Below are positions 1-3,000 of a stretch of 6,014 nucleotides of DNA, piece after piece. Numbering within the stretch: position 1 is the stretch's first letter; each line of letters opens with the position of its first letter. The position numbers are program-made. The stretch lies in the IMG/VR virus record IMGVR_UViG_2698536307_000001, one strand, 5' to 3'. This DNA comes from a virus. Its lineage: Duplodnaviria > Heunggongvirae > Uroviricota > Caudoviricetes.

Positions 1-3000
1 GGAAAAAATAGCCTAAATAGGCTGATTCGATGTGTTTGCGGGAAAAAAATCGGCCCAGATCCGAGAAATTTTAATCAGCGAGTCAGCTTGGGAAGAAATG
101 ACCTGCTTATTCGCACCTTCCTTAGCAGTATTGGCCCATTTCACCAGGTCAAACGCCTGTCCATCCACACCATCGAGCACCGGAGTAACATTAATGCTGT
201 TACTGCCCTTAAATTTAAATGCAAGCGTATGCCAGTCATGGTCGAATGCGCCAAACGTGCCAAGTTCTTTTTGTTGATTAACTGTATGATGGTATGCAAC
301 ATTAATACTGGCTTTATCTGTCTGGACAAAGAAAGAACTCAGATGGCCTTCACCACCCTCACCCGGCCATTCCGCTATTCGCCAGTACAAACCAAAGGCA
401 TACTTGTTTCTGGTTGTCTCAAGATTGACGTTTTCGGGGATTTTAAACCGGACAGCAATTTCCCCGCCTTTTTCCAGTAAAAGTTTTGCCTTGTCTGCAG
501 CAATATCACAGTACATTGACCAGGATTTCGCGCTGTTATTTTTCTCAATTCGCAGAGCTTTATTGCCGCTGTCATCAACCAGTGTGCGCCTGCCATACAC
601 ACCGTCCCAGCCATAGGGTTTCAGCTGATTGTCTGTAGCTTTTTTGGCATCGTAAAAAATTACAGACTCTGAGGTGGTAACCGGTCTGTCTGGAACAACC
701 ACCCCGGCAGTACCATTAACAAACGCAGAAGACTTACCCGCGCAGCTCAGAATCGCAGTTGCCAGACGGTCGGAAATAATCCCACGGCGAGCCCATGAAC
801 TGAAATGGCTCGCCCTGTCCTGTGACGTCCAGGTGGCTGAGCTGTCACGCCATTTCGAACCGTAATAACCGATACCCGGAATGTCCGGGTCTTCTTCCGG
901 TTTGTTCGTCGGCACATTCACCCCGTTCTCATCGGTCATGAACGGTACGAAATGGATATTCTTTTCCGTTTTATTTTTATAGCTGCCGTACACCGTCTGG
1001 TACGTGGATTCGTTCTTCTGCTTCCAGAAATACGTCGTGTCCCCGCATATCCAGGGAACACCGCCAGCAGAGCCACCGACGCACTGGCCTGCCATATCCG
1101 CCAGGTCTGCACGGAATTTATCAACCAGCGCACCAAACTGTGCGGCATGATTTGCCGGCGTACCGCCAAAATCAAATTCCCCCTGCATCCACACCACGGC
1201 AAACAGCACATTTTTCGGGTTCTTCTCCAGTGCCGCTTTTGTTCGACCGATAAGGTCCTTATACAGCGGCTTGTCCACACCCCAGCGGGTTGAATTCTCC
1301 GAGGCGCCACTCGCGTCACTGTATGTGCCATCAGCTCCGGTGGTGAACGCTGAACCACCACGACAGCACGGAACCAGCAGAATGCCCGCATTCGCCGGTA
1401 TAAACGGCAGCAGTTTTTTGGCGATATGCAGCCCCTGCCCCACGGTTCCGTACTGCCCCTTTGACAGGTCCGCTTTCGGATGGTTAAGACGGCTCATGTC
1501 CTGCACATCATGCAGACAATGGTCCGCCGGAATGATGTCGTTATATTTGCATGCTGCACCGCCCGGTGTCACCGTACTGCGACGCGCTAACTGTTTAATA
1601 CGTGGATCAGGGCTGTCGAATGTATCCGGTAATGGCAGTCCCTCACCGTATGACATACCATTGGACTGACCAGCAAGCGCGATCACATAGTAATATTCTG
1701 GCGCAACAGAAGGCGCTGAGGTCGTCGGACGGTTGCCTGGCTCCTCTGGTGATGAGATGCTCCCCTCACTCACAACTGGCTGGATGAACTCCGCACCATA
1801 ACCAGCTGTCGAAATCAGCGCACTACCATAAGGCTGCCACCCTTCCTTCAGTTTTTGAGTTATTCGTTTCGCAAGGTCTGACGGCGACGCCGCCCTGACA
1901 ACATCATAGTGTTTAAATGCCATGAATCCTCCCGGCCGGGATAATATTGTGAGTAAAATAAGGAGCGGGCTGAAGTCCGGAAGTTACAGGACAATGGCAG
2001 AAGGGAGACTACAGCCCGCAATTCGAAAAAGGTCGCGCAGTTGCGCAGAGTGATTACTATGGGGTATTATTCGCCAGCTGAAATATTACTTCACGTTTCA
2101 TTGTTCATTCCTTGCCGCCCGCGTCTCCCAGCGCGGGTTTTTTTGTCCATAAGAAAGCCCCTCCGGAGAGGGGCTGGAGAGTGGCGCTATGTGCCATTGC
2201 ATGGTGCCGGGTGCCTCCCGGTGAGTTCAGCCCGGTGCCACTAAACCCGCGTCATTCTCGTTTTGATAATCAGAGATTATACCGTCACCAGTCGCCCCTC
2301 CGCTCAGGGGGATTCACCATGCAGTTTTTTCTAACAAATTCTCATCCGGGCAGACAACATTCAACTGACTTAATTGTGAGGTATGTAACATTCCCGTTGA
2401 ACGGATACAAAAAAAGCCAGCCACCAGGGGAGGCTGGCAAACTCGTAGAGCAAAATGCTGTTACGCAAACTTCGTTACAGGGTTATCCTGCAATACTTAA
2501 AATATACAATATTTAGAAAACTAATAGTGCCATATGAGATTTTTAAGATTTTGTTATTAATTGCGGTCGTACCTTCCTTTCTGTGTACTTTCCGTATAGC
2601 TCACAGGATTCTGGGTACAAAAAAACCCGCGCATCGGCGGGTTCGGCTGCGTGGCAATGTAACCACTCTTATCATGATATGCAGATTTTTACGATCGTAA
2701 ACTATTTTTTCGCTGATAAAATACAGAGCTTCTCCCTCCCGGCAATTCACGCTCAACATACCGATCCATCTCAAGCCTCACTCCCAGCATCATCAGCATG
2801 CCTTCAACAATCCCCTCCGCTTTGTGAAGGCGTTTACCTATACAGGTGTCAGAGCACCCATGTTTCCGTGCCAGCGCCATGAACGTCTCCCCCAACACGT
2901 AGTAATCAACCAGCAAGTCATGCAGATCGCGATTGTTCCGGTAAAGGCGGGCTATGCACCCGCATATCACCATCGCATCATCGTCACAGCACTGTGGACG

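Follow-up and report, generated by a model that had tools for sequence, protein, structure and literature searches.

The window analysed here is a 6,014-nt stretch of DNA from a caudoviricete virus (IMG/VR record IMGVR_UViG_2698536307_000001). Comparison of the window with genomes showed the locus to be 99.9% identical to a prophage of Escherichia coli O104:H4 and relatives. The host prophage is lambdoid, with a late regulatory region resembling that of Shiga toxin (Stx) phages, and carries neither stx nor tRNA genes. All genes in the window lie on the minus strand, in the order ninB, ninE, rusA, ninH, Q and, after a 765-bp gap, nanS-p; in the 99.9% identical reference locus, holin and lysozyme genes come after nanS-p. 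Within the gap, two hairpins, one on each strand, face each other. They are the terminators of a convergent pair of small RNA (sRNA) genes, a dyad already described upstream of nanS-p in Stx-type E. coli prophages. Read along the minus strand, Q (2689–3123) is followed by the late promoter PR' with tR' (2701–2410), the dyad (2076–2377) and nanS-p (13–1923), which places the dyad downstream of Q and PR' and upstream of the conserved open reading frame (ORF) that precedes the lysis genes. The features of the region are:

13–1923, minus strand: nanS-p, a SASA-family sialate O-acetylesterase gene, the conserved ORF downstream of the dyad (ORF call and RefSeq annotation of the 99.9% identical locus).
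1874–2144, plus strand: homologue of EcOnc21/EcOnc42, a long RNA running antisense to the 5' untranslated region (UTR) and ribosome-binding site of nanS-p (identity; UV crosslinking and analysis of cDNA, CRAC; northern blot; sequencing of hybrids after crosslinking and ligation, CLASH).
2041–2070, plus strand: predicted sigma-70 promoter of a short sRNA (−35 TTGCGC at 2041–2046, 18-nt spacer, −10 TATTAT at 2065–2070).
2076–2144, plus strand: predicted short sRNA of about 69 nt (start placed from AsxR geometry; matches the EcOnc08 peak).
2117–2144, plus strand: intrinsic terminator at which the plus-strand (anti-late) sRNA gene ends (hairpin fold, conservation and covariation; EcOnc42 homologue flagged as Rho-independent).
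2148–2175, minus strand: intrinsic terminator of the STnc100-family sRNA (stem 2175–2156, tail 2155–2148; 3' end of the Rfam match; covarying stems).
2145–2377, minus strand: STnc100-family sRNA gene, related to EcOnc05, EcOnc27, sRNA103 and PasD (Rfam match 2350–2145; 5' end probably near 2377).
2410–2701, minus strand: PR' (2701–2674), StxS-like late leader (about 2667–2410) and tR' hairpin (2440–2421) (promoter and terminator scans; Sp15 identity).
2689–3123, minus strand: antiterminator Q gene, upstream of PR' (ORF call and RefSeq annotation of the 99.9% identical locus).

The plus-strand hairpin has a stem at 2117–2138 of eight pairs (six G-C) with a 6-nt loop, followed by seven T residues at 2138–2144, and folds at −14.7 kcal/mol (z = −3.66). 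Its minus-strand counterpart (stem 2175–2156) also has eight pairs, six of them G-C, with a 4-nt loop and the tail UUUCUUAUGG, and folds at −19.8 kcal/mol (z = −3.73). For neither hairpin did any of 200 shuffles equal the observed energy. On the complementary strand, the plus hairpin lacks a T tail and its folding does not stand out from shuffles (z = −1.16), so this hairpin is a terminator for the plus strand only. Terminator-like sites are frequent in the window (18, compared with 6.4 ± 2.5 in shuffles), and the two hairpins of the pair are the second and third strongest among them. An earlier note on this DNA, whose observation of the two hairpins is confirmed, had placed both correctly to within 1–2 nt; its description of the minus-strand tail as U-rich holds only moderately (five U in eight). 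The 3' ends thus converge, with terminators at 2117–2144 on the plus strand and 2175–2148 on the minus strand.

We compared the regions upstream of nanS-p at 95 loci, taken from phage records and from public contigs of viruses and genomes; a genome-contig scan supplied seven of them. The convergent hairpin pair with its plus-strand cassette was present in 81, and the other 14 had different content. The window type (−10 TATTAT) accounts for 53 cassettes and the AsxR/AgvB/EcOnc03 type (−10 TAAAAT) for 28. At every one of the 81 loci the minus stem begins 11–13 nt past the plus-strand T-run. A hairpin with at least six T residues is kept in all 37 distinct plus-cassette variants, with stems as different as CCCGCG/CGCGGG, CCCGCA/TGCGGG, CTCGCGCC/GGCGCGGG, CCGCTC/GAGCGG and GCCCGA/TCGGGC. 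In a covariance-model alignment of the plus hairpin, which was fitted to the structure and is therefore biased towards it, 91.4% of cells pair and five of the eight pairs vary on both sides; slid registers pair in just 20–56% of cells. Double-change cells numbered 31, compared with 7.8 ± 2.2 in shuffles (0 of 500 reached 31). The minus-terminator stems covary as well (GGCCCCT/AGGGGCC versus GGCTCCT/AGGAGCC). Both hairpins are evolutionarily maintained. Plus-cassette types and minus-terminator types occur in mosaic combinations, and therefore the two sRNA genes behave like separate modules joined at the spacer between the terminators. The window-type dyad (2030–2180) was found in 985 of 5,426 complete E. 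coli genomes and was annotated in none.

On the minus strand, Rfam model RF02076 (STnc100) matches 2350–2145 over its full length (model positions 1–206 of 206) with 165.1 bits (gathering score 47; E = 2.8e-38). The stem at 2175–2156 is the last helix of this match and forms the 3' terminator stem-loop. The region is 90.7–93.7% identical to the copies in Sakai prophages Sp4 and Sp15. Judged by sequence, the RNA is an STnc100-like sRNA of about 230 nt whose closest studied copies are EcOnc05 and EcOnc27/sRNA103. Because homologues measure 222–247 nt on northern blots, we place its 5' end near 2377; just upstream of it, a −10-like TACATA (2389–2384) before a conserved TCACAATT box may mark the promoter. 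STnc100 sRNAs are encoded by prophages and related to PasD; in enterohaemorrhagic E. coli (EHEC) they go by the names EcOnc05, EcOnc27 and sRNA103, and they are transcribed in EDL933. The function of the family is poorly defined; for sRNA103 only overexpression effects on fimZ and espA are on record. The window RNA is a full-length, high-scoring member in a prophage setting beside Q and an esterase gene, with no notable difference from STnc100 and PasD. The slot varies elsewhere: a phiSTEC1589-Stx1c-type locus (L004/L042) holds two tandem STnc100 matches (803–1014 and 1076–1289 in L042), and phage vB_EcoS-640R1 has several STnc100-like copies in succession. In the same phage (locus L006, 1130–1545), an iraM-like anti-adapter gene on the opposite strand runs convergently towards the STnc100 terminator.

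The earlier note had read the minus hairpin as the end of a short late leader RNA. That assignment fails: the hairpin is the 3' end of the STnc100-family RNA, and the leader transcribed from PR' stops at tR' (2440–2410), with the minus hairpin of the dyad about 235 nt further downstream. Window positions 2410–2720 are 95.5% identical to the PR'-StxS-tR' region of the Stx1 phage Sp15, and a start near 2667 with a T-run ending near 2410 gives a leader of about 258 nt, the distance from PR' at which the StxS 3' end was mapped (Sy et al. 2020). On sequence grounds the late leader proper is a StxS homologue, a late-strand sRNA of the same regulatory gap. It differs from the minus-strand RNA of the dyad in being a distinct RNA that ends upstream of the pair, at a terminator other than the minus hairpin. 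The homologue is unannotated and sits in a prophage without stx. An additional strong hairpin with a T-run lies at 2644–2623 on the minus strand, about 25 nt past the predicted leader start. EcOnc15, considered as the dyad partner in Sp15, was rejected; it is located upstream of stx1A and is StxS.

Convergent sRNA pairs between a moron coding sequence and a conserved ORF have been described in eight Sakai prophages (Sp3, 4, 5, 9, 10, 11, 15 and 17; Tree et al. 2014, PMC4104026), and a 2021 review calls them dyads. Two of these are close homologues of the window. EcOnc05 with EcOnc08/EcOnc21 in Sp4, and EcOnc42 with its STnc100 partner in Sp15, occupy the same slot, past PR'/tR' or a moron and before a nanS-p homologue, and share the window's convergent geometry, promoter hexamers and terminators. 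Window positions 1874–2144 are 94.8% identical to Sp4 and 92.6% to Sp15, and nucleotide identity across both dyad RNAs is 91–95%. The copies differ in that the window's lies in a stx-less, tRNA-less prophage of an O104:H4-like strain, and in substitutions that close the plus stem with G-U instead of G-C and place five mismatches in the published probe site.

In Sakai, Hfq-CRAC peaks on the anti-late strand define EcOnc08 and EcOnc21 (Sp4) and EcOnc42 (Sp15); EcOnc42 was flagged with a Rho-independent terminator, and EcOnc08, EcOnc21 and EcOnc42 all appeared on northern blots as a band of about 271 nt (Tree et al. 2014, PMC4104026). We placed the published coordinates on the sequences. The EcOnc42 and EcOnc21 peaks map to the homologue of window 1973–2061, and the 73-nt EcOnc08 peak, present in five of five datasets, spans exactly from the T-run back to CGCCAGCTG. 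RNase E-CLASH hybrids hold plus-strand fragments from about 1947–1954 onward and across ATATTATTCGCCAGCTGAAA. The shared northern probe is antisense to window 2037–2071, where 30 of its 35 positions are conserved. The earlier note had deduced from the terminator pair a plus-strand transcript that runs antisense to the late operon and ends at about 2144; such a transcript is thus borne out in homologues that are 93–95% identical. By analogy with these Sakai homologues, for which CRAC and northern data exist, both RNAs of the window dyad would be expressed and bound by Hfq.

The published work on Sp4 and Sp15 reports an RNA of about 271 nt only, function unknown; the short form is our addition. 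By analogy with AsxR, we predict that an RNA of about 69 nt (2076–2144), unreported as a short RNA, is transcribed from TTGCGC-18-TATTAT. The start at 2076/2077 follows from homology to the AsxR promoter, with +1 lying 6 nt after the −10; in Sp5, a promoter of the same frame precedes the triphosphate 5' end of AsxR mapped by rapid amplification of cDNA ends (RACE), its +1 6 nt past the −10. More generally, the window's promoter frame and −35 are those found upstream of AsxR, AgvB and EcOnc03, whose 5' ends were mapped by RACE. All 81 loci have the −35 TTGCGC, an 18-nt spacer and a −10 of the form TA..AT, and so share the slot and promoter frame of AsxR and AgvB. Among 36 distinct sequences of both families, invariance upstream of the RNA body is confined to TTGCGCA and, 18 nt downstream, −10 positions 1, 2, 5 and 6 (TATTAT/TAAAAT), whose flanks vary. 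The predicted RNA consists of a variable 5' part, a conserved U-rich UUGUU(C/U)AUUCCUUGCC stretch (UUGUUCAUUCCUUGCC) and the terminator. Its coincidence with the EcOnc08 CRAC peak suggests that the short form exists. The published probe could not have detected a 69-nt form because it lies upstream of the short-RNA start.

The 5' end of the long form may lie at about 1874 (271 nt) or at about 1950 (about 195 nt), the latter downstream of ATGCCA-17-GATAAT at 1917–1945, the only promoter-scan hit for this form. Plus-strand 1964–2019, which on the minus strand belongs to the nanS-p 5' UTR, contains a conserved long-range inverted repeat, GCGGGCTG ... CAGCCCGC, around an A-R-N-rich AGAAGGGAGACUACAG, and a CLASH intramolecular hybrid joins both arms in the Sp15 homologue. 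This region is probably the Hfq-binding module of the long RNA. A plus-strand small protein was considered and rejected, since the 43-amino-acid ORF at 1922–2053 is frameshifted by a 1-nt indel in relatives and other ORFs cross the terminator.

The nearest characterized relatives of the plus-strand cassette are AsxR, paired with EcOnc27 in the Stx2 phage Sp5, and AgvB, paired with EcOnc06 in Sp10 and Sp17. Their position is identical, and their convergent partner is an STnc100 copy as in the window. In Sp5, AsxR and stx2 lie on opposite strands; the terminators of AsxR and EcOnc27 face each other, and the STnc100 copy there is matched by the EcOnc27 probe. AsxR and AgvB share with the window the −35 TTGCGC, the 18-nt spacer, the upstream flank and the layout of a short RNA whose 5' part varies and whose 3' part is conserved, closed by a terminator. 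They differ in the −10 (TAAAAT versus TATTAT), in length (51–60 nt versus a predicted 69 nt) and in RNA body and terminator, which are unrelated (GCCCGAACCCACTCGGGC against GCCCGCGTCTCCCAGCGCGGG). The Rfam models for AsxR (RF02703) and AgvB (RF02702) gave no hit in the window at E ≤ 1 and none in four window-type loci (L008, L097, L042 and L065) at E ≤ 0.01, whereas the positive controls were recovered (AsxR with 88 bits in L009, AgvB with 96.5 bits in L074). Our own model R1 recovers AsxR/AgvB dyads at 29–44 bits. We therefore rejected membership of the window RNA in the AsxR/AgvB group, whose models miss the window type, whose published sequences differ and whose conserved 3' region of about 42 nt (GTATCTCATGC..TTGCCCGAACC..TCGGGC) is lacking here. 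AsxR (54 nt) and AgvB (60 nt) act in trans as sRNA sponges, on FnrS and GcvB (Tree et al. 2014, PMC4104026); these targets are not implied for the window RNA. An AsxR-type dyad is also present in an 888-bp contig titled Xanthomonas pisi DSM 18956 (L015, NZ_JPLE01000080.1), which matches the E. coli nanS-p N-terminus at 100% identity over 80 matched residues; the contig is very likely E. coli or phage contamination of that assembly.

Plus-strand positions 2086–2096 carry an exact 11-mer, UUACUUCACGU, shared in the same sense with Spot 42 (spf nucleotides 40–50), and its core ACUUCACGU is retained in classes D, D2/D4 and F of the cassette. Two sialic-acid genes, nanC and nanT, are repressed by Spot 42. 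Mimicry of the Spot 42 seed is nonetheless unsupported: the 11-mer lies mostly in a Spot 42 stem and was found post hoc, with a chance probability that we estimate at about 0.1.

Taking these observations together, we consider it highly probable that the hairpins are back-to-back terminators of a convergent Hfq-binding sRNA dyad in the moron slot between PR'/tR' and nanS-p, with an STnc100-family RNA on the late strand and an EcOnc08/21/42-family RNA, in short and long forms, on the opposite strand. The opposite strand would yield two products with a common terminator, one of about 69 nt from about 2076 and one of about 195–271 nt from near or inside the nanS-p start region. In a lysogen, each sRNA gene would be constitutively transcribed towards the other, its own terminator preventing antisense run-in. 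The mature RNAs of the dyad are not complementary to each other because about 4 bp separate their 3' ends, leaving no overlap. Upon induction, Q-modified polymerase from PR' would pass tR' and then the terminator of STnc100, continuing into nanS-p and the lysis genes, and the plus-strand RNAs would be complementary to the resulting read-through late messenger RNA (mRNA). AsxR and AgvB suggest, by analogy, that the short RNA would most likely act in trans with Hfq, by means of its variable 5' part. A trans role is favoured because 5' parts are swapped between phages on a constant nanS-p leader. The long form could additionally pair in cis with the nanS-p leader and cover its ribosome-binding site; as read from the sequence, cis control of nanS-p translation is possible for the long form only, which alone reaches that site.

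A model built on the earlier note's suggestion that an antisense RNA could modulate nanS-p and late-gene expression, in which the plus-strand RNA is chiefly a cis-antisense across the nanS-p ribosome-binding site that blocks translation, triggers RNase III cleavage or causes convergent interference with late transcription, is in our judgement unlikely as the main explanation, and it may coexist with a trans role. Any plus-strand RNA is perfectly complementary to the read-through late mRNA, leader 1924–2040 is conserved in both cassette families, and a long form of about 271 nt, or one beginning where the CLASH fragments do, would cover the nanS-p Shine-Dalgarno sequence and start codon (1935–1921). 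Yet the complementarity of the predicted short form stops about 150 nt upstream of the nanS-p start, and AsxR and AgvB, encoded in the same slot, fall short of nanS-p as well and act in trans; the swapping of 5' cassette parts over a constant leader is a better fit to trans targets, and no effect on nanS-p has been published. Very improbable, to our mind, is that the plus hairpin is a mere insulator, or a relic terminator of a lost opposite-strand moron, without a functional RNA. The iraM-like gene of vB_EcoS-640R1 indicates that such morons occur at this place, but its hairpin is unrelated in sequence, for which reason we rejected a relic of a moron of this kind as the source. Moreover, an invariant promoter is kept upstream of the window-type terminator, the homologous RNAs are bound by Hfq and visible on northern blots, and the plus strand has no conserved ORF, the 43-amino-acid frame being shifted by the indel. 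That both hairpins are functionless chance inverted repeats is almost certainly wrong, even though some six short G+C-rich hairpins with T residues are expected per shuffled window. With z near −3.7 for both and none of 200 shuffles folding equally well, the Rfam STnc100 match of 165 bits that includes one hairpin, the compensatory stem changes and the 11–13-nt geometry fixed across 81 loci refute it.

Several points weigh against the dyad interpretation as we frame it. The short form is predicted only, and the northern evidence from homologues is for about 271 nt, obtained with a probe upstream of the short-RNA start. For the 271-nt form, inspection by eye found no convincing promoter hexamers near 1835–1870. 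Evidence of expression comes from homologues in other strains, and the assignment of reads and bands is ambiguous because the Sakai copies are near-identical repeats. The tail of the minus-strand terminator is U-poor (5/8). A role as a trans-acting sponge is analogy only, as the RNA has no AsxR/AgvB model match. Reviews list the targets of EcOnc42 as unknown, and authors in the field consider the reason for the convergent dyad arrangement unclear.

Elsewhere in the window, a full-length Rfam match to sRNA-Xcc1 (RF02221) lies at 5310–5399 on the minus strand (67.5 bits, gathering score 53, E = 4e-11), within the intergenic stretch that separates two ORF6N/antirepressor-like ORFs. Two minus-strand ORFs, 4636–5268 and 5523–5903, have near-identical C-termini of about 90 amino acids (PQFTAEEIILLCYMQLWMEKAQD...RARQFEF; positions 4636–4900 and 5523–5790), which points to a direct DNA repeat or a partial gene duplication. 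Two further Rfam hits were dismissed as chance: anti-hemB over both hairpins (20 bits, gathering score 49.5, E = 0.33) and Qrr at 2407–2509 (E = 0.62).

The seemingly empty 765-bp gap thus comprises three or four sRNA genes, one StxS-like, one STnc100-like and one EcOnc08/21/42-like in a long and probably also a short form, none of them annotated in RefSeq. The dyad, which has the late promoter on one side and the lysis genes on the other, occupies the place at which Shiga toxin genes insert. In EHEC, its sibling RNAs AsxR and AgvB rewire core sRNA networks that serve the uptake of haem and amino acids. The rest of the dyad having been described before, the predicted 69-nt RNA is the one possibly new element. 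Tentatively, the window-type cassette may represent a second, commoner family of short anti-sRNA-like RNAs, 65–79 nt long (about 69 nt here), with the AsxR/AgvB promoter frame and a 5' 'seed' that comes in at least five alternative variants (D, D2/D4, E, F and G), unreported as short RNAs. If this is true, the 69-nt RNA would extend the anti-sRNA idea to a cassette present in about 18% of complete E. coli genomes.

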